IMG/VR virus record: IMGVR_UViG_3300026484_000157
Span: 32,001 to 96,000 of that record
DNA: 64,000 bases
Reading direction: 5' to 3' (one strand)
Source: a virus
Position numbers and translations under genes: made by a program. Positions 42,437 through 56,523 of this stretch are shown here, piece by piece (the first letter of the stretch is position 1; the number at the start of each line of letters is the position of its first letter). The notes under the pieces are model-generated. The model ran no database searches. It worked only from the letters and a program-made list of their open reading frames with translations, and was not told the DNA's origin.

Positions 42437-43441
42437 ATGGCAACAAGAAGAGACTTAGACAGAACAATTTCGGCAATCGCATCAGGTATTTTACAAGTTA
42501 TTGATACATATAATTTAACAGGTGATCTTCCATCAGGAAAAGATACAAACATTGAACCAAACATTGCTAAAATTTTCAACAAAGAATTTGGTTGGGCAAT
42601 TGGTAGAGGCGATTATGAAACTGCAATCGATATGATCTCTGAATGGTACCAAATTTTGTTCCTTGAAAGAGCAGATAAATTGCTTGGGGAATATACACCA
42701 TCTTGGGAAGAAGGACATATATCACCATTATTGGGATATTTAAAGCTTTCAATGATAAGAGCAGCACAACAAGTATCAATTAAATTTACTAAAATTAGAC
42801 AAAGAGAACAACAAGTCAACCCAATTGATGATGAATCTTACGATGATGCACTTAACAGAATAATGAACACTCCAAAAAGTGGAAAGATCATTCATGAAAA
42901 TGACCCTATGATATTAGAGTTGGAAGAAATTATCGAGTATTATGAAGCTAACCCATCTGAGAACAATGATAAGAAACTTAAAAAAGCAAAAGAAAAACTA
43001 GATCTAATATTCAACCCAAAGAAAGTACTTCATGATGTAGATGTATTCTTAAATAAAGAGTTTGATGTTATTGATGAAATTGCTTATGAGAGAATTCTTG
43101 CTGACCTTAAAAAGATAATCAAAGGTAGACAAAATTATGAAATCCAAATTAAAATTCTAGATTTATTGTTAGCAGACTTCGCTCCATCTGAAATTGCAAG
43201 ATTATTAAATGTATCAGCAGCAAAAATATCACAAAGAAAGAAAACATTACTTGATGATATCACAAAACTAGCAAAAAAATATAGTGAAGAGGGTGATTCA
43301 ACATTAGATGAGTTCCTTGAGGACAGACTAAGTAAGAAAAATTCTACTAAATCAAAATCTGGTGTTACTGGTAATAGAAAACAAGAGACTAATGTTGAGT
43401 GTCTTCTAACAACAGCAGCACTAATGGGAATTAAATTATAA
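42437..43441 (+). CDS. Sigma factor-like transcription protein
   Basis: Region-4-like HTH KILDLLLADFAPSEIARLLNVSAAKISQRKK; region-2-like segment upstream. Confidence 0.6.
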   Translation: MATRRDLDRTISAIASGILQVIDTYNLTGDLPSGKDTNIEPNIAKIFNKEFGWAIGRGDYETAIDMISEWYQILFLERADKLLGEYTPSWEEGHISPLLGYLKLSMIRAAQQVSIKFTKIRQREQQVNPIDDESYDDALNRIMNTPKSGKIIHENDPMILELEEIIEYYEANPSENNDKKLKKAKEKLDLIFNPKKVLHDVDVFLNKEFDVIDEIAYERILADLKKIIKGRQNYEIQIKILDLLLADFAPSEIARLLNVSAAKISQRKKTLLDDITKLAKKYSEEGDSTLDEFLEDRLSKKNSTKSKSGVTGNRKQETNVECLLTTAALMGIKL

Positions 43442-44418: not shown

Positions 44419-46287
44419 ATGGCTGATGTTTATTCTCTTGAAAAAGGTCTGGATCATCTTTATCCAGAATATCAACTACAATATAAAGATAATATTGATG
44501 GGTTTAACAAGACATTTAATCCATCAATGATTGATGTGAATAAAACTATGTTCAAGAAATCTATGGAAATGATAGAGCATCATAAATGGATGAAAGAATG
44601 TAAATTCACACTAGCAACATATACTGATCCAAAAGAGGATTATGAATTAGATATTGAAAAGTTTGACAACATTGATCAGCTAATTGCTCTAATAGACGAC
44701 CGATGTGAAATGCAAGACCCAGAGGATAACCCAGTCCTAAAAGAGCCAAAGAAAATTGTCGCATTCGATTTAGAAACAACTGGTCTTAGAAACAGACATC
44801 AGAGAATTGGTGGTAAAAAAGAGTCACAAGTAGGTATTGTTGGAATATGTGTTGCATATTCTGAAACTGAGGGTTATTATATACCAATTAAACATAATGA
44901 GTTAGATGGCATTAAGAATTGGACTATTCAAGATGCAGTTAAGCTTATCAATTATTTCCAACAAGATAACCATCTGGTAATATGGCACAATGCAATATAC
45001 GATTTATTTGTAAGTATATCATCAGGTGTAACTTTGAATAAATCAATGAACCATGATACCTATTTATTATGGAAGATGACATTTGAGGAAGAATTTAGCA
45101 ATCTATTTCAATACGGACTAAAGCTCTTATCAGAAAGATTCCTTAAAAGAAAAATGCAGACAATTAACGATCTGCTTGGTGTTGATGCGAAAGCACACAT
45201 AGAATTTCAGAGATTACCATCTGTAAATGCAGTAACCTATGCAGTGTCTGATGCAACTAACACTTATGCACTTTGGAAATATCTATTTAGCAAAAAATTC
45301 AGAAGAAACCCATATACTAAACAGCCAATAGCAACTAGACTGGAAATGCGATCTATCTATGATTCATTATCAATGCTAAGTACTGGGATTCCAATAAACA
45401 CAAGTCATGCAATCCCAATGCTGAAAACAATTTACAGAAGACAAATATTATTACAGAGTAAATTTGACCAATTGGTAGGTGATGGATTCACAGTAATAAC
45501 TAGTGATGAAAAATGTGGAATGTATATTGGTAAAACAATAATGGGTGCTTGGGAAGAGTCAGGAAAAGACAAAGATCAGGGATATAAATTTTTGGAAGAA
45601 AAATTTGGAATGAAGATGACTGTTAGAAATGGTGCAGGTGGAGTGAAAAAAGAGACATTCTCAAATGCTGATTCAGTTCTTGAAGCATTACTTAAATCTC
45701 TCCCAAATATGGATTTCATTAAAGATGAACAGAAGAAATCTTTAACATCAATCATTAAATATATACAAGCATATCGATCATTAGACCATGAAAGATCTGG
45801 ATATCTTGGAATAATAAGATCAGTAACATTGGATGATAGAGGATATCCTTTTGTTCACAACTCGCTGAACCTTAATGGTACCGACTGTGTAATAAAAGAT
45901 ACACCAATAAACATAAGAGTTAACAAATCTAATAAGCCAATATCCACGACGATGGACAAGCTAGATAGATATTGTGATTATGATGATCTTGAGGGCGAAT
46001 ATGAGTTTAATGAATACATAGAAATTGAAACTATTGATGGCTGGGTACATATAACTCATTTTGTTACTAAACATAAAGACACAATTGAAATATCAACTAA
46101 ATCAAGATCTATTGGTGTAGCAACTAGACATAGATTCATGAATGAAAATGACAGATGGATATATGCTAATGAATTGAAAATTGGGGATTTTGTCAAAACA
46201 ATAGATGGTTATGAAGAGGTTACAAAGATAATCAATTTAAAAGGACAAATGACATATGATATTGTCACCAACCACAAACAATTATAA
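44419..46287 (+). CDS. polA: Family A DNA polymerase N-terminal part (3'-5' exonuclease, thumb) fused to split intein N-fragment
   Basis: ExoI AFDLETTGL, ExoII WHNAIYDL, GLKLLS, ExoIII YAVSDA; HNSLNLNGTD then intein CVIKDT. Confidence 0.88.
   Translation: MADVYSLEKGLDHLYPEYQLQYKDNIDGFNKTFNPSMIDVNKTMFKKSMEMIEHHKWMKECKFTLATYTDPKEDYELDIEKFDNIDQLIALIDDRCEMQDPEDNPVLKEPKKIVAFDLETTGLRNRHQRIGGKKESQVGIVGICVAYSETEGYYIPIKHNELDGIKNWTIQDAVKLINYFQQDNHLVIWHNAIYDLFVSISSGVTLNKSMNHDTYLLWKMTFEEEFSNLFQYGLKLLSERFLKRKMQTINDLLGVDAKAHIEFQRLPSVNAVTYAVSDATNTYALWKYLFSKKFRRNPYTKQPIATRLEMRSIYDSLSMLSTGIPINTSHAIPMLKTIYRRQILLQSKFDQLVGDGFTVITSDEKCGMYIGKTIMGAWEESGKDKDQGYKFLEEKFGMKMTVRNGAGGVKKETFSNADSVLEALLKSLPNMDFIKDEQKKSLTSIIKYIQAYRSLDHERSGYLGIIRSVTLDDRGYPFVHNSLNLNGTDCVIKDTPINIRVNKSNKPISTTMDKLDRYCDYDDLEGEYEFNEYIEIETIDGWVHITHFVTKHKDTIEISTKSRSIGVATRHRFMNENDRWIYANELKIGDFVKTIDGYEEVTKIINLKGQMTYDIVTNHKQL
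45886..46284 (+). mobile_element. Split intein N-fragment (133 aa)
   Basis: Cys1 CVIKDTPI, ETIDGW, block B VATRHRF, ELKIGDFVKTIDG, start of block F TYDIVT, then stop. Confidence 0.85.
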
Positions 46288-47104
46288 GACAATAAAATCA
46301 TATACAAATGGCTTCACAAATATAAAGAAATTTGTGAAGCTACTACACACTAATAAAGGTTACAACTTTAAGAGATACAACTTCATGTATCCAATCAGAT
46401 TCAAGATAGTTCTGTTCTTATTCATAATGAGGGAGCAGAACTCAATATATAAGTATAAAATTCCAGAAAACTGTAAAATGAGATATGATACTGATAAAAT
46501 CATAATAACATGTCCATTTCATGGAGACTTCAGTCAAAGAATAATAAAACACATAAGTGGTAATGGTTGCCCAAAATGTGCATCAAATATACGGCTGACA
46601 AATGAAGAATTCGACTCGAGATTGAAGTTAATAGATAAAAGTTTGATAAGATTAGATGAATATATTTCAATGGAACATGGACTAGATATAAAATGTATGA
46701 GATGTGGAGATATATTTAATAAAACTCCAAATATATTATTATATGGTAATAGTGGATGTAGTGTATGCAGATCTAAAGAATCTAAAGGTTCATTAGAAAT
46801 TTCACATCAACTAAATCTATTCAAAGTAAGGTATATTAAAGAATATAGATTCAAGGATATAGCAAGAATGCCATTTGATTTTTATTTGCCAGATTATAAT
46901 ATATGCATCGAATATGATGGGGAACAACACTTCACATATAATAATCCATTTAGTTCGTTAGTAGGAAATACTATTAAAAATGACCAAATCAAGAACAATT
47001 TCTGTGCTAAGAACAATATCAAATTAATCAGGATACCCTATACAAGTTATAAGGATATAAGATTAATAATAGTAACAATAAAGGACAACAATGAAAAGAT
47101 ATGA
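46256..47104 (+). CDS. Free-standing homing endonuclease (zinc-finger repeats plus Vsr/DUF559-like nuclease)
   Basis: CPFHGDF...GCPKC, CMRC...GCSVC; FDFYLPDYNICIEYDGEQHF...DQIKNNFC...LIRIPY. Confidence 0.85.
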   Translation: MILSPTTNNYKTIKSYTNGFTNIKKFVKLLHTNKGYNFKRYNFMYPIRFKIVLFLFIMREQNSIYKYKIPENCKMRYDTDKIIITCPFHGDFSQRIIKHISGNGCPKCASNIRLTNEEFDSRLKLIDKSLIRLDEYISMEHGLDIKCMRCGDIFNKTPNILLYGNSGCSVCRSKESKGSLEISHQLNLFKVRYIKEYRFKDIARMPFDFYLPDYNICIEYDGEQHFTYNNPFSSLVGNTIKNDQIKNNFCAKNNIKLIRIPYTSYKDIRLIIVTIKDNNEKI

Positions 47105-47384
47105 TTATATTGCAAATGGGTTTGTTTGCCATAACACTGGACGGTATTCCAATGCTAAAACAAGATTTAATAGATTAACTATCAATGTCACAAAAACTGG
47201 TAAAGTCAATATAAAATTTAAAGATTCATCTATCCTACCAAATATGCAAGGACTATCAGGTAGACCATATATTACGAAACCTGCTAAACAACTTAAGTCT
47301 ATTCCAATATCTATCGAGCAAGACATAACAAGTTTAAATGATAAGGTTGAAGAGTTATTCAGAGAAGAAATACTAAAATTATAA
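47091..47384 (+). CDS. polA: Split intein C-fragment (15 aa) plus PolA C-extein segment
   Basis: SD AAGGA; MKRYDYIANGFVCHN then TGRYS...PNMQG (PolA TGRxS...PNLQ motif). Confidence 0.85.
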   Translation: MKRYDYIANGFVCHNTGRYSNAKTRFNRLTINVTKTGKVNIKFKDSSILPNMQGLSGRPYITKPAKQLKSIPISIEQDITSLNDKVEELFREEILKL

Positions 47385-47405
47385 TAATCAAGAAGGATAA
47401 CAACA

Positions 47406-49709
47406 ATGAAATTAGATGAGTTTCAACAAAAGATAGTTGATAGCAACCAAGATCAATCAACTCTAGTTACTATTACGGCAGGTGCAGGATGTGTAGCATA
47501 TGACACCCCAATTGTAGTAAAAATAAAAGATAACATACCACAAGATGTTTATTATAAGCTTTCCAAAATATTAAATGATAAAATGATAACCACAATAGAA
47601 ATTTCGAAGTTATTCGAAATCAAGGATCTTCTTGAATATATAGAAATAGACACACCTGATGGTTGGCAACCGATAGATGATGTGTTTGAAACTGGTGATA
47701 AAAAGTCATATAACATAACGACTGAGACTGGTGATATAACTGTTTCTGAAGATCATTGGTTATTAGACAACAACAATAACTGGTCTTCTGTCGCTTCGCT
47801 TCATGTTGATGATATAATACAAACCAGAGATGGGAACGAGAAGATTATATCGAAGAAATCAATTGGTACAATAAAAACTATGGACATTACTGTTGGACAT
47901 GAGAATCATAGATATTACACTCAAAATATAATATCACACAACAGTGGTAAAAGCACTGTTTTCGCAAATAAAATAGCTAGGTTAATTTTAGAAGGTCATG
48001 CAAAACCTGATGAGATAATAACACTAACCTTCACAAATAAAGCAGCACGGGATATTAAAAGTAAAATAAAAGCACTACTTCCAAAGGGTGCTGAACTTCC
48101 ACATGTATCAACAATTCATAGCTTATTTATCAAACTACTAAGAGATTTCAAAGTCAATCCTATTGTAATGAATGAATGGGGCAATATTTTAACTTTGAGA
48201 TCAATTATTGAACAACATTACCAATTTGATACAAAAGGTGAGCTTACTGCATTTACTAGAGATATTCTTGCTTATGTAGATCAATATCAATTATCTGCTC
48301 CTGATATCAACATTGATGACTGGAAATTATCTGATTATGTTGAAGATTGTACAATCACAAGTAAAAAATTTAACAAAATTTACAAAGAATATGATAAGTT
48401 TAAGAGGGAGAAGAATTTATGGTCGTATAACGATTTAATTTCATCTAGAGTAAAAGAAGTAATCGATTTTAATAAAATTAATAGTTCAACCAAATATTTA
48501 TTCAATGATGAGGCTCATGATGAGACATTGGCAGAATTACTTCTAATAAGAGATATAGCAAGTCAAAATATCTTATATAACATACAAGATAACTGCCAAG
48601 AAATTTATGGGTGGAGATTTAGTCGTGCTGATCTATTAGCAGATAAATCCTTTTGGGCAGATCACTTCAATAAATATGAAGAGTACAAACTTCTGAAAAA
48701 TTATAGATCAACTGAAAATATATTGAAAGTGTCGAATTTATATAGATCACATCTGGATGATATCCAATTAATACCCACTAAAGAAAACTTGAAGGGATCA
48801 GTTAAAATATCTCAGGTGGAAATGGAAACTCATGAAGGTAAATATATCGCAGTTGAGATAAAGAAATTACTGGAAGAGGGTACTGCTCCAAAAGACATAA
48901 CAATATTGGTAAGATCAAATATGTTCATTAAATCAATACTTGAGCCACACTTAATAGAATCAAATATACCTTACACAATTGATACTCCAAAATCAAAAAA
49001 GAAGATGTTTGAATCTCCAATAAACAAGATATTCCTATCATTTATGGAAATATATTCGAATAACGAGAATTTACTAAGCATAATCTCAATATGTGATTAT
49101 TATATTGGTGTTGGTGCAGGATCTAAAAAGACTCTAATGGATTCATTTATTAACACTTCAATGTTAACACCAGATAAGAAATTCGATAACATAAGATACA
49201 CTTTTAATAACATATGTGAGTTTTCAACTCAATATTCATCTGCTTCAAAATTGCCAGTAATACTAGATTACTTTGAATCTTTAATAAGACAATTCATAAA
49301 AACTTCTGAATACAATGAAAATAAGATCAATCTCATAAGAAAAACTATCACAAATTATGTGTATACAATCTATGAAGATTATCCATCTTACACAATCCAT
49401 GAGATTTTTGCTGAAATTATAACACAAATTGACTCATTTGAAGATGATGCTATGAATAAGGTTAAAATCATGACATATTATGGTGCAAAAGGATTATCAC
49501 TTCCATATGTATTTGTATCAGATATGTCATTAAAAGCACCTAAATCGAATAGTGATAGTGACAATTCATTATATGTAGCATTATCTAGGGCTGAAACAAG
49601 AATGTATATTGTTTCATCAAGTATAAAAATTAACAGAAGTTTTGGCAAAATGAAACAAAATATCCCATCAATATGGACTAAAACATATAACAAGCTTGTT
49701 GGTGGTTAA
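47406..49709 (+). CDS. uvrD: UvrD/Rep/PcrA-like SF1 helicase with intein
   Basis: AGAG/SGKST after intein removal, LTFTNKAA, STIHS, DEAHD, QEIYGWR, NYRST, ILVRSN, LYVALSRA. Confidence 0.9.
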   Translation: MKLDEFQQKIVDSNQDQSTLVTITAGAGCVAYDTPIVVKIKDNIPQDVYYKLSKILNDKMITTIEISKLFEIKDLLEYIEIDTPDGWQPIDDVFETGDKKSYNITTETGDITVSEDHWLLDNNNNWSSVASLHVDDIIQTRDGNEKIISKKSIGTIKTMDITVGHENHRYYTQNIISHNSGKSTVFANKIARLILEGHAKPDEIITLTFTNKAARDIKSKIKALLPKGAELPHVSTIHSLFIKLLRDFKVNPIVMNEWGNILTLRSIIEQHYQFDTKGELTAFTRDILAYVDQYQLSAPDINIDDWKLSDYVEDCTITSKKFNKIYKEYDKFKREKNLWSYNDLISSRVKEVIDFNKINSSTKYLFNDEAHDETLAELLLIRDIASQNILYNIQDNCQEIYGWRFSRADLLADKSFWADHFNKYEEYKLLKNYRSTENILKVSNLYRSHLDDIQLIPTKENLKGSVKISQVEMETHEGKYIAVEIKKLLEEGTAPKDITILVRSNMFIKSILEPHLIESNIPYTIDTPKSKKKMFESPINKIFLSFMEIYSNNENLLSIISICDYYIGVGAGSKKTLMDSFINTSMLTPDKKFDNIRYTFNNICEFSTQYSSASKLPVILDYFESLIRQFIKTSEYNENKINLIRKTITNYVYTIYEDYPSYTIHEIFAEIITQIDSFEDDAMNKVKIMTYYGAKGLSLPYVFVSDMSLKAPKSNSDSDNSLYVALSRAETRMYIVSSSIKINRSFGKMKQNIPSIWTKTYNKLVGG
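47490..47942 (+). mobile_element. Mini-intein (151 aa) in UvrD Walker A
   Basis: CVAYDT start, VSEDHWL block B, TMDITV...IISHN end followed by Ser. Confidence 0.92.
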
Positions 49710-55182: not shown

Positions 55183-55537
55183 AATAAAATGTAATCTATG
55201 TAATGTGAACAAAGTCTACAGAAACGATGAAAATAGTGAAATACTGCACTTTACAGGGTATATTAACAATGAATGGCATCACCATTGGCACATTTGTATT
55301 GAATGTTCGGATTTCAACAACTTAAATATATCAAGAAGATTAGATAAAAAACTGTTGAATATAAAGATTGGTCAGCAGTTCATGAAGAGTAATTCGTGTA
55401 ACATACCCTATGAAGTTTCAAAAATCAATGGGAACACAATTTATATGATACAATTCAATGGATCGGCAACTGATGTTATAACAATATCAAGAAAGATCTC
55501 AAAAGAAGATTTTCATAAACAATTTACTAAGGTATAA
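55175..55537 (+). CDS. Hypothetical zinc-finger protein
   Basis: CNLC...CIEC. Confidence 0.45.
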   Translation: MTRIKCNLCNVNKVYRNDENSEILHFTGYINNEWHHHWHICIECSDFNNLNISRRLDKKLLNIKIGQQFMKSNSCNIPYEVSKINGNTIYMIQFNGSATDVITISRKISKEDFHKQFTKV

Positions 55538-55539
55538 AA

Positions 55540-56523
55540 ATGACAAATACACTACATGACCCAAGATTAACCGATGAACAGAAAAAATTATACGATGAAT
55601 TTTCTGTTAATGAAATGTTACCAGTAGAAGAACATGAAACTCCAATTGGTAACATACTGTTCAAAAGAATAGATAAATATAAACCAGTTGATAACATCCA
55701 TGTTGGTGGTGGAAAAACTTTACAGTCTGTAACATTGATGATAAATAACATCAATCAAATCAGAGACCATTTTGATTCAAATGTTTCAACAGCAGCAGCA
55801 CTGACATCACCTCAACATCATTTGGTATCTGGTGTTGCCAAGAAACTAGGATTGAATTCATTTGTGGGTATACAAGGGACTCCTGAGAGACTACCAATCA
55901 TTTTAGAAAAATACTCAATGATAAAAGCAGCACAATATTATGATGCGACGATATTACCAGTTACTAAAGCAGCATACCAAGTTGTAATAGAATCTAGAAT
56001 GAATAAACAATTAGCAAAAGATGGTATAAAGCATTTCTTTATCAAATTCGGTATTAACATTGATAAAGACAGGGATGCAATTCTAGGATCAATAGCTAAC
56101 CAAGTTGAAAACATTCCTGATGAATTAGATCACCTAATCATCCCAAGTGGATCATGTCTATCTGCAGCAGCAATTATTAATGGCATTCATAAATTTAAAA
56201 AGAAAATCAAAAATATTCATGTAATTCAAATAGCAGGTGGCTCTCATGCCAAAAATATAGATGTAAATATGCCAGTATTGGCTCACTATAAATATCAATT
56301 CCACTTAATAACTGATATCCCATATAAAGAACATAGATATTATACTATTGGTAAAGATGATCAAGAATTTCAAATCGATCCAGTATATGAGGGTAAGGCT
56401 TATGAATATCTTCTGAACAATCATAAAGAGATGGGAATAAAACCAGATGACAAGACACTATTTTGGGTTGTCGGATCGACTGTATCAACTAGAAAACACT
56501 TTGGTGATTCATTAGGATACTAA
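55540..56523 (+). CDS. PLP-dependent fold-type II enzyme (ACC deaminase/D-cysteine desulfhydrase-like)
   Basis: LFKRIDK...GGGKT (PLP Lys), SPQ, IIPSGSCLS, IDPVYEGKAY, LFWVVG. Confidence 0.75.
   Translation: MTNTLHDPRLTDEQKKLYDEFSVNEMLPVEEHETPIGNILFKRIDKYKPVDNIHVGGGKTLQSVTLMINNINQIRDHFDSNVSTAAALTSPQHHLVSGVAKKLGLNSFVGIQGTPERLPIILEKYSMIKAAQYYDATILPVTKAAYQVVIESRMNKQLAKDGIKHFFIKFGINIDKDRDAILGSIANQVENIPDELDHLIIPSGSCLSAAAIINGIHKFKKKIKNIHVIQIAGGSHAKNIDVNMPVLAHYKYQFHLITDIPYKEHRYYTIGKDDQEFQIDPVYEGKAYEYLLNNHKEMGIKPDDKTLFWVVGSTVSTRKHFGDSLGY

Follow-up and report, generated by a model that had tools for sequence, protein, structure and literature searches.

A candidate naturally split intein with a 15-residue C-terminal piece in the DNA polymerase gene of a phage

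The DNA examined here is a stretch of 64,000 nucleotides, bases 32001-96000 of the 126,269-bp virus record IMGVR_UViG_3300026484_000157, which we call the window. The gene for the N-terminal subunit of the DNA polymerase PolA is interrupted there by what we read, with a probability of about 0.72, as a naturally split class-1 intein in the fractured-gene arrangement with an unusual break site. Three open reading frames (ORFs) follow each other on the same strand, each in a different frame. ORF1 (44419..46287, plus strand, 622 aa) consists of a 489-aa N-terminal part of PolA and a 133-aa N-terminal intein piece (IntN). Cys490 of ORF1, the first residue of IntN, is encoded from 45886, the coding sequence runs to 46284 and a TAA stop occupies 46285-46287. 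An endonuclease ORF comes next. ORF3 (47091..47384, plus strand, 97 aa) begins with MKRYDYIANGFVCHN, taken as the C-terminal intein piece (IntC), and continues with TGRYSNAKT.... Because a stop codon lies in frame three codons upstream of the ATG of ORF3, IntC can be at most 15 aa long. The first-pass annotation of this DNA had described a polymerase ORF ending in a 133-aa intein fragment that stops at TYDIVTNHKQL, followed by an endonuclease ORF and then by an ORF with its own Shine-Dalgarno (SD) sequence. The ORF coordinates, the ORF order and the consensus ribosome-binding site of ORF3 bear out this description. That the PolA intein is functional and splices in trans with an IntC of 15 residues is what we infer, and we consider it likely. 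The features of the locus are as follows.

44419..45885, plus strand: N-extein, residues 1-489 of the PolA N-subunit (3'-5' exonuclease and thumb region), ending NSLNLNGTD; Pfam DNA_pol_A_exo1, E-value (E) 3.1e-07; PHROG phrog_17 DNA polymerase, E 5.6e-25, residues 31-488; colinear with the intein-less P0002 and P0003
45886..46287, plus strand: IntN, 133 aa, Cys1...TYDIVTNHKQL and TAA; near-complete HINT domain without the last two strands (AlphaFold2, Foldseek, alignment)
46309..46342, plus strand: RNA hairpin of 13 bp, in the leader that separates the stop of IntN from the start of the endonuclease, with TATAAAGA in the loop region; free energy -16.3 kcal/mol, z -7.2, equalled by 0 of 200 shuffles; also found as a palindrome
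46408..46442, plus strand: second hairpin, enclosing the candidate endonuclease start ATG at 46427; minimum-free-energy fold of 46285-46500 at -46.1 kcal/mol, z -4.96
46427..47104, plus strand: free-standing endonuclease gene with two treble-clef Zn-finger modules and a C-terminal nuclease domain (FDFYLPDYNICIEYDGEQHF...); phrog_559, E 6.6e-46; phrog_9084 'homing endonuclease', E 2.8e-23
47080..47090, plus strand: ribosome-binding site of ORF3, aaaggacaaca before the ATG, within the 3' end of the endonuclease gene; resembles the recurrent aaggataacaac-ATG of the phage
47091..47135, plus strand: IntC, 15 aa, MKRYDYIANGFVCHN (alignment); 14-nt overlap with the endonuclease ORF
47136..47384, plus strand: C-extein, 82 aa (TGRYSNAKT...PNMQGLSG...EEILKL) and stop; C-terminal end of the PolA N-subunit; P0002 and P0003 have colinear tails that stop at the same place

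Insertion site, intein fold and position of the break

Among 5.8 billion protein clusters, the search with ORF1 returned two homologues that lack the intein: P0002, of 606 aa and 41% identity, and P0003, of 576 aa and 31% identity. Both read through the junction (marked by a slash) without interruption, as ...NISGTD/TGRYSNAKT... in P0002 and ...NGTL/TKRYSNSG... in P0003. Residues 1-489 of ORF1 and 16-97 of ORF3 are colinear with both homologues, whose ends coincide with the end of ORF3. In relatives, these two stretches (571 aa) are therefore one protein. P0141 carries a contiguous intein at the identical PolA site (NGTD/CVIKG...VYDITVDHENHRYYSNGICSHN/TRRYK). In the bacterial Pol I P0006, ...NTGRLSSTDPNLQNIP... 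stands at the position matching the C-extein, followed by DYSQIELR. The earlier proposal that joining would restore NGTD-TGRYS, the T-x-TGRxS motif of PolA, is sound by the comparison with P0006 and by the read-through in P0002 and P0003.

The same annotation had called the locus a fractured polA. The insertion site is indeed exact, but the 82-aa C-extein completes a stand-alone N-subunit rather than an entire PolA. Here, as in P0002 and P0003, about 45 residues follow PNMQGLS before the N-subunit ends. PF00476 is matched only once in the entire record, by a 260-aa ORF (G000:C1:17268-18050; L001 1360..2142), which lies outside the window at a distance of about 60 kb from the N-subunit gene and aligns with residues 394-528 of the Bst Pol I large fragment, from the O-helix through the QG..AD region. 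With palm and fingers in this distant ORF, PolA of the phage clade is therefore encoded by two genes, of which the one for the N-subunit is interrupted by the intein. A sequence comparison of both subunits located the conserved motif-A Asp in neither of them. A possible motif C reads HLDE, not HDE.

The AlphaFold2 model of IntN, built from a 36-row alignment, has a predicted local distance difference test score (pLDDT) of 94.1; its last strand comprises residues 114-128, and residues 129-133 (NHKQL) form a coil. When this model was compared by Foldseek with the PDB, the VidaL intein was the best match (E 6.3e-08, template modelling score 0.77), followed by RadA, gp41-1, DnaB and other inteins. 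Among the fold matches listed (46 of 47 at E<=0.001), all are inteins or other HINT domains. VidaL is also the closest solved sequence (E 0.004). The intein models of Pfam and NCBIfam do not detect IntN, and neither database gave a match for ORF3.

Two contiguous inteins served as references for the break, namely P0141 (...VYDITVDHENHRYYSNGICSHN/T) and the intein of the neighbouring UvrD-like helicase (...TMDITVGHENHRYYTQNIISHN/S). Aligned with them, the break falls between ...YDIxVxH and RYYxNGxxxHN, which is inside block F. IntN stops at the H-x-N-H turn, and IntC brings RY.Y..NG...HN. The earlier comparison with the UvrD intein alone had put the break in the middle of block F, and the alignment that includes P0141 agrees. 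The catalytic set is distributed over both pieces. IntN has Cys1, and two further residues of it, the His H82 of block B and the Asp D125 of block F, do not vary in the 36-row family alignment; IntC ends in CHN, which supplies the His-Asn pair, and is followed by Thr+1.

The UvrD intein is itself a contiguous mini-intein of 151 aa, at window positions 47490-47942 in the P-loop of the helicase gene (47406..49709; ...TAGAG/C...IISHN/SGKST). It belongs to the VidaL-like clade and shares about 31% identity with the PolA IntN. A single-sequence AlphaFold2 model of it was poor (pLDDT 46.8) and was not used. Residues 28-109 of the UvrD intein gave a further weak tblastn match (27% identity, E 0.004 in a genome-only search) at window positions 55537-55803, the start of an ORF at 55540..56523 that belongs to phrog_3650 (function unknown).

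For the association of the two pieces, IntN with 10 N-extein residues was modelled as one chain and the first 40 residues of ORF3 as the other. The complex scored 0.85 and the best of three controls 0.00; of the solved complexes, 51 of 78 attained this mark, and of the mismatched pairs 2 of 108. Contact agreement in the two-chain runs was at least 71%, with a partner pLDDT of at least 51. On the side of the ORF3 piece, the modelled interface is formed by residues 2-3 and 5-18; on the other side it is formed by strands of IntN and the last two residues of the N-extein (-2 and -1). As many inteins have already been solved, such a pass indicates likeness to a working intein and is not proof of binding. 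The structure check proposed in the first-pass annotation has thus given a confident HINT fold and a complex score far above the controls, both as predictions. Expression of the downstream piece would start from aaaggacaaca-ATG, which nearly equals the recurrent aaggataacaac-ATG of the phage. An SD-like motif was found at 46 of the 58 ORF starts examined.

Recurrence of the break and alternative explanations

When IntN was compared by phmmer with 1.84 billion representative proteins, 46 matches were obtained at E<=1e-3, five of which cover the full intein piece. These are ORF1 and the UvrD protein of the window, the contiguous P0141, and two proteins that terminate at the break. P0139 (352 aa) ends in ...TYDVVTNHGI, with 48% identity to IntN and its stop 2 residues beyond the match; P0140 (616 aa) ends in ...TFDVVTNHSV, with 40% identity and its stop 1 residue beyond the match. 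Over the whole protein, identity to ORF1 is lower than over the intein piece (35% for P0139, 33% for P0140), and judged by these identities IntN is at least as conserved as its host protein. Thirteen contigs of up to 23,464 nt carry P0139, and two of up to 81,435 nt carry P0140. The end is identical in all five members of the P0139 cluster, including two that are cut at the N-terminus and one with a different N-terminal intein. The ends of P0139 and P0140 are therefore not contig ends, and since they share the stop point, the break must be inherited or recurrent rather than an assembly slip. Given the low overall identity to ORF1, the split state has either persisted through long divergence or been spread by homing. 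Either way, this argues that it is tolerated and functional, and its recurrence in two diverged relatives strengthens the case for a split intein.

Further searches were aimed at additional loci of this kind. A word search for short proteins like ORF3 returned only that of the window (1 of 1 candidate). Queries with ORF1, ORF3, P0140 and P0139 confirmed no related locus in viral contigs, and a two-sequence alignment search of metagenome contigs gave 528 pattern matches and no relative. Degenerate DNA patterns run against viral contigs gave 4 matches for the IntN end, none of them an intein, and 1 match for the IntC/extein junction, which is not an intein either. A metagenome scan with P0144 collected 80 loci with related inteins, and a nearby stop was found in none of the 4 high-scoring segment pairs that reach the IntN end. 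However, the search patterns span the break, so this set is biased towards forms that are unbroken at block F and says nothing about the frequency of the break.

Other split forms came up in the same material. At its N end, P0139 has an IntC of the conventional kind, 35 aa long, whose start lies 20 residues ahead of the YD in block F. P0139 and its close relative P0187 each carry such an IntC of 35 aa, at PolA sites that lie 31 residues from each other, and both have an atypical IntN at the C-terminus, so that a single PolA N-subunit is divided among three or more genes. P0144 (222 aa) consists of a long IntC that starts at an S1-like place, at the identical PolA site, and then the PolA tail. 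A similar long IntC at the N end of P0141 belongs to a second intein. P0157, a protein of 112 aa from a contig of 871 nt, extends from the S1-like place to the block-F break; it might be either a mere fragment or the central part of an intein in three pieces. Among the metagenome loci L006-L085, 46 of 80 were examined, and 38 of the 46 have a stop within 40 codons upstream of the intein match. In many of these 38 the ORF begins M-W-I-E-K-E..., which would be the long IntC of an S1-type (VidaL-like) split intein in a helicase with the C-extein TGVGKS. Four loci (L049, L050, L062 and L072) have the contiguous form ...LAG/CVHP.T.... By the evidence of these ORFs, the VidaL-like intein clade is very often split near the N end.

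Several observations weigh against a working split intein in the window. The 15-aa IntC is known from one genome only, and P0139 and P0140 are known only as proteins. The block-B Thr is replaced by Ala, as it also is in relatives and VidaL. All three split forms lack the second His of the H-x-N-H turn seen in the family; in the window, L133 and K2 of IntC stand roughly in its place. The relatives of the endonuclease have 97-166 extra N-terminal residues, which means that the window's endonuclease has fewer Zn-finger modules than they do and may, from this comparison, be decaying. The docking pass may owe something to the solved inteins. Finally, the IntN stop is covered only by the contig of the probable source run; independent runs cover parts of the endonuclease and the junction between endonuclease and IntC, which is reproduced by contigs of two other studies with 2 and 0 differences.

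The best surviving alternative, though an improbable one, is that the intein pieces bind without splicing and the N-subunit is a non-covalent pair held by an intein remnant, like the NrdA fragments of phage Aeh1 after a split by a homing endonuclease. Fragmented NrdA does assemble without splicing according to PMC3045599, the docking model supports association and not chemistry, and the missing second His of the block-F turn would also fit. On the other hand, mere binding does not need Cys1, the block-B His, the block-F Asp, the terminal His-Asn and Thr+1, all of which are retained, and Cys1 and the His are retained even in relatives that are only 40-48% identical. In addition, without splicing the polymerase would be left with 148 intein residues in the midst of its TGR-PNxQ region.

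It is less probable still that a recent, crippling endonuclease insertion has left a dead PolA N-subunit without splicing, in a record that would then be a defective or host-dependent variant. An endonuclease that appears shortened at its N end, a polymerase whose motif-A Asp was not located and a complete arrangement seen in one genome only speak for this reading. But two relatives at 40-48% identity have the identical stop position and an intact IntN, which implies long persistence under selection; ORF3 retains a consensus ribosome-binding site and an intact tail that is colinear with P0002; and CheckV rates the record as 100% complete. Neither binding without splicing nor a dead allele agrees well with a break that is conserved and catalytic residues that are kept.

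Least credible of all is a break that does not exist at the protein level, either because 46288-47090 leaves the RNA as an endonuclease-carrying intron or because sequencing or recoding frameshifts mask one contiguous intein with a nuclease domain: the leader 46285-46500 is strongly structured (z -4.96), frame 2 is open over 46256-47104 and overlaps both neighbours, so that two +1 shifts would fuse all three ORFs, and the IntN stop has only the one contig behind it, yet an Rfam scan of 45500-47700 finds no intron family at E<=10, an intron core could not be accommodated behind the endonuclease ORF because ORF3 begins within it, ORF3 is equipped with a consensus ribosome-binding site and an ATG of its own, the nuclease homologues are free-standing proteins of 295-385 aa and not intein domains, two frameshifts would be required within intervals of about 30 nt and 20 nt, independently assembled relatives stop at the identical residue, and the contigs of two other studies reproduce the endonuclease/IntC junction. 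The Rfam scan itself returned 4 unrelated matches, far below their gathering scores.

The split intein originally proposed for this locus is thus supported by the exact insertion site, the HINT fold, the kept catalytic residues, the free-standing nuclease family and the lack of an intron signal in the Rfam scan. We envisage its origin and working as follows. A contiguous VidaL-like mini-intein at GTD/T of the PolA N-subunit would have been entered, in the codons of the block-F turn, by a free-standing homing-endonuclease cassette. The cassette would have given the upstream piece its stop, and its 3' end would have given the downstream piece a ribosome-binding site and an ATG. ORF1 would now yield N-extein(489)-IntN(133), and ORF3 would yield IntC(15)-C-extein(82) from its own consensus ribosome-binding site, possibly coupled to termination of the endonuclease ORF. 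IntN would fold as a nearly complete HINT horseshoe, to which the 15-mer would contribute the last two strands, bringing His-Asn and Thr+1 beside Cys1. Splicing would then proceed by an N-S shift at Cys1, transfer to Thr+1, Asn cyclisation and an O-N shift. The product would be a 571-aa N-subunit with the junction ...NGTD-TGRYS..., working with the separately encoded 260-aa palm/fingers protein. The endonuclease, its start buried in hairpins, would be a selfish passenger that made the break and may spread it.

We lean slightly towards a wider claim, namely that this phage PolA intein clade has kept the block-F-turn split over long divergence, with an IntC of about 15 residues docking on a near-complete IntN, and that it would be the first natural split with a short C-piece. 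In its boldest version, which draws on the S1-like starts of P0144 and P0141 together with P0157, the claim would extend to natural three-piece inteins in this PolA clade.

The endonuclease, its leader and the genome setting

Either 46427 or 46478 may be the start of the endonuclease, in a frame (frame 2) that is open over 46256-47104; homology begins near 46490. The protein matches PHROGs annotated as HNH endonuclease, homing endonuclease and intron-encoded nuclease. At E<=1e-5, 5269 homologues were found among 5517 candidates, most of them free-standing proteins of 295-385 aa, and the family is present in 638 of 50,697 phage records. Homology has its median start at residue 81 of the 282-aa frame, and the C-terminal end is intact.

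The earlier annotation had called the intervening nuclease Vsr-like. The N-terminal part is made up of treble-clef Zn-finger modules (weak Pfam matches to DUF4379 and DUF723, invariant Cys pairs) and showed no NUMOD-type region, unlike I-Bth0305I, which has NUMOD regions. The residues invariant in the family are D134, E145, D147, H151, D169 and K172, numbered from 46478. The spacing from Asp to His is 17 residues, as between D196 and H213 of I-Bth0305I. One source labels relatives of the endonuclease 'very-short-patch-repair endonuclease'. The label is plausible, in that the invariant Asp, Glu-x-Asp, His and Asp and the Asp-to-His spacing resemble the Vsr-like I-Bth0305I, but no significant match was found in the PDB (none with the single sequence; with a profile only AbaSI, E 0.41). 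From its residue pattern, the nuclease is probably Vsr-like.

Between the IntN stop and the endonuclease homology, the leader 46297-46489 is predicted to form one closed domain with four internal hairpins, in which 46297-46303 pairs with 46483-46489 (z -4.96). It matches no Rfam family. We read this predicted fold as putative translational control of the nuclease. A direct repeat, ATGA.ATATGATA.TG, which occurs at the IntN end and the candidate endonuclease start, with a similar motif before IntC, was taken as chance because its quality equals that of 6 other two-copy families in 1.7 kb.

The virus record as a whole is complete (100%) according to CheckV. The window has a G+C content of about 31%, and nearly all its genes are on the plus strand. 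The replication module around the split gene comprises an SNF2-like helicase, a DnaB-like helicase, a primase-like ORF, PolA, the UvrD-like helicase, a dUTPase, a dNMP kinase and a ligase. The start motif aaggataacaac-ATG recurs almost identically at genes of this module (window positions 42437, 47406, 49777, 50729, 53285, 61133 and 62458). In a tblastn search of the 50,697 phage records, ORF1 matched 51, all below 60% identity. No isolated phage in this set is close to ORF1, as none of the 51 records reaches 80% query cover. Among the matches listed (25 phage records), only the exonuclease part of ORF1 was aligned.

Comparison with known split inteins

In the fractured genes described by Dassa 2009 (PMC2677866), such as gp41-1, NrdJ-1 and IMPDH-1, IntN has 88-105 aa and IntC 33-54 aa, and the break is at the canonical site of the endonuclease domain; a terminase intein with an IntC of 122 aa is the exception given there. 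The first-pass annotation had stated that the usual split lies before block F and leaves an IntC of about 35 aa, which agrees with the 33-54 aa of this source. The PolA locus resembles these genes in the order of its parts on one strand (host N-part with IntN, endonuclease, IntC with host C-part) and in its host, an enzyme of DNA metabolism from a phage-like genome. Hairpins occur in 15 of the 16 endonuclease leaders in that account, as they do at 46309-46342 and 46408-46442 in the window. The end of the endonuclease overlaps the start of IntC by 14 nt, compared with 6-69 bp at 15 loci described there. Unlike the published loci, however, the PolA intein has an IntN of 133 aa and an IntC of 15 aa, with its break inside block F and not at the canonical site. 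The spacer before the endonuclease is 139-190 nt long in the window as against 27-51 nt, and PolA is absent from the hosts given in PMC2677866. If our reading is correct, a homing endonuclease can split an intein elsewhere than at the canonical site of insertion, and the outcome can persist. The replication genes of this phage clade would be heavily cut up, with two split inteins per PolA gene in relatives and the polymerase itself encoded by two distant genes.

Natural atypical splits have been reported for VidaL, PolB16 OarG, AceL-TerL and GOS-TerL, in which the short piece is an IntN of 15-37 aa and the split is at S1 or S2 sites, as described in PMC13014065 and PMC11766414. The PolA intein is like these in being natural, in being split off the canonical site and in having one very short piece, and VidaL is the closest solved structure to its IntN. 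It differs in that the short piece is IntC. In the full-text papers searched, which reach to March 2026, we found no natural split with a short IntC. C-pieces short enough for synthesis have so far been made by hand as far as these sources go, with 15-16 residues in DnaE inteins and 6 in S11 designs. A natural, selected split with a 15-residue C-piece would thus be the missing counterpart to the natural splits with a short N-piece. It would also provide a naturally optimised, peptide-sized C-intein for C-terminal protein semisynthesis; artificially split inteins are usually less efficient at splicing than natural ones, according to PMC13014065.

The engineered S11 split inteins (Ssp GyrB S11, Ssp DnaX S11 and TerDnaE3 S11) have a C-fragment of 6 aa that contains the last strand only, by the description in PMC11766414. 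They share with the PolA intein a short C-terminal fragment fit for peptide synthesis, but they are artificial and contribute one strand, whereas the 15 aa of the PolA IntC would contribute two. Closer to it is the engineered NpuDnaE IntN123/IntC15, described together with an SspDnaE C16 by Aranko 2009 (PMC2664965), both of which are divided in the loop that joins strands 10 and 11 and precedes the final two beta-strands; N123/C15 is reported there to splice robustly. The C-intein has 15 residues in both cases, and the modelled IntN of the window ends just past the strand 114-128. The equivalence of the two loops is drawn from the description in that paper and from the IntN model. NpuDnaE N123/C15 was man-made from a DnaE intein with a natural IntC of 36 aa, in contrast to the VidaL-like PolA intein, whose split is natural. 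As judged from the model, the PolA split intein is most likely the natural counterpart of this engineered pair.

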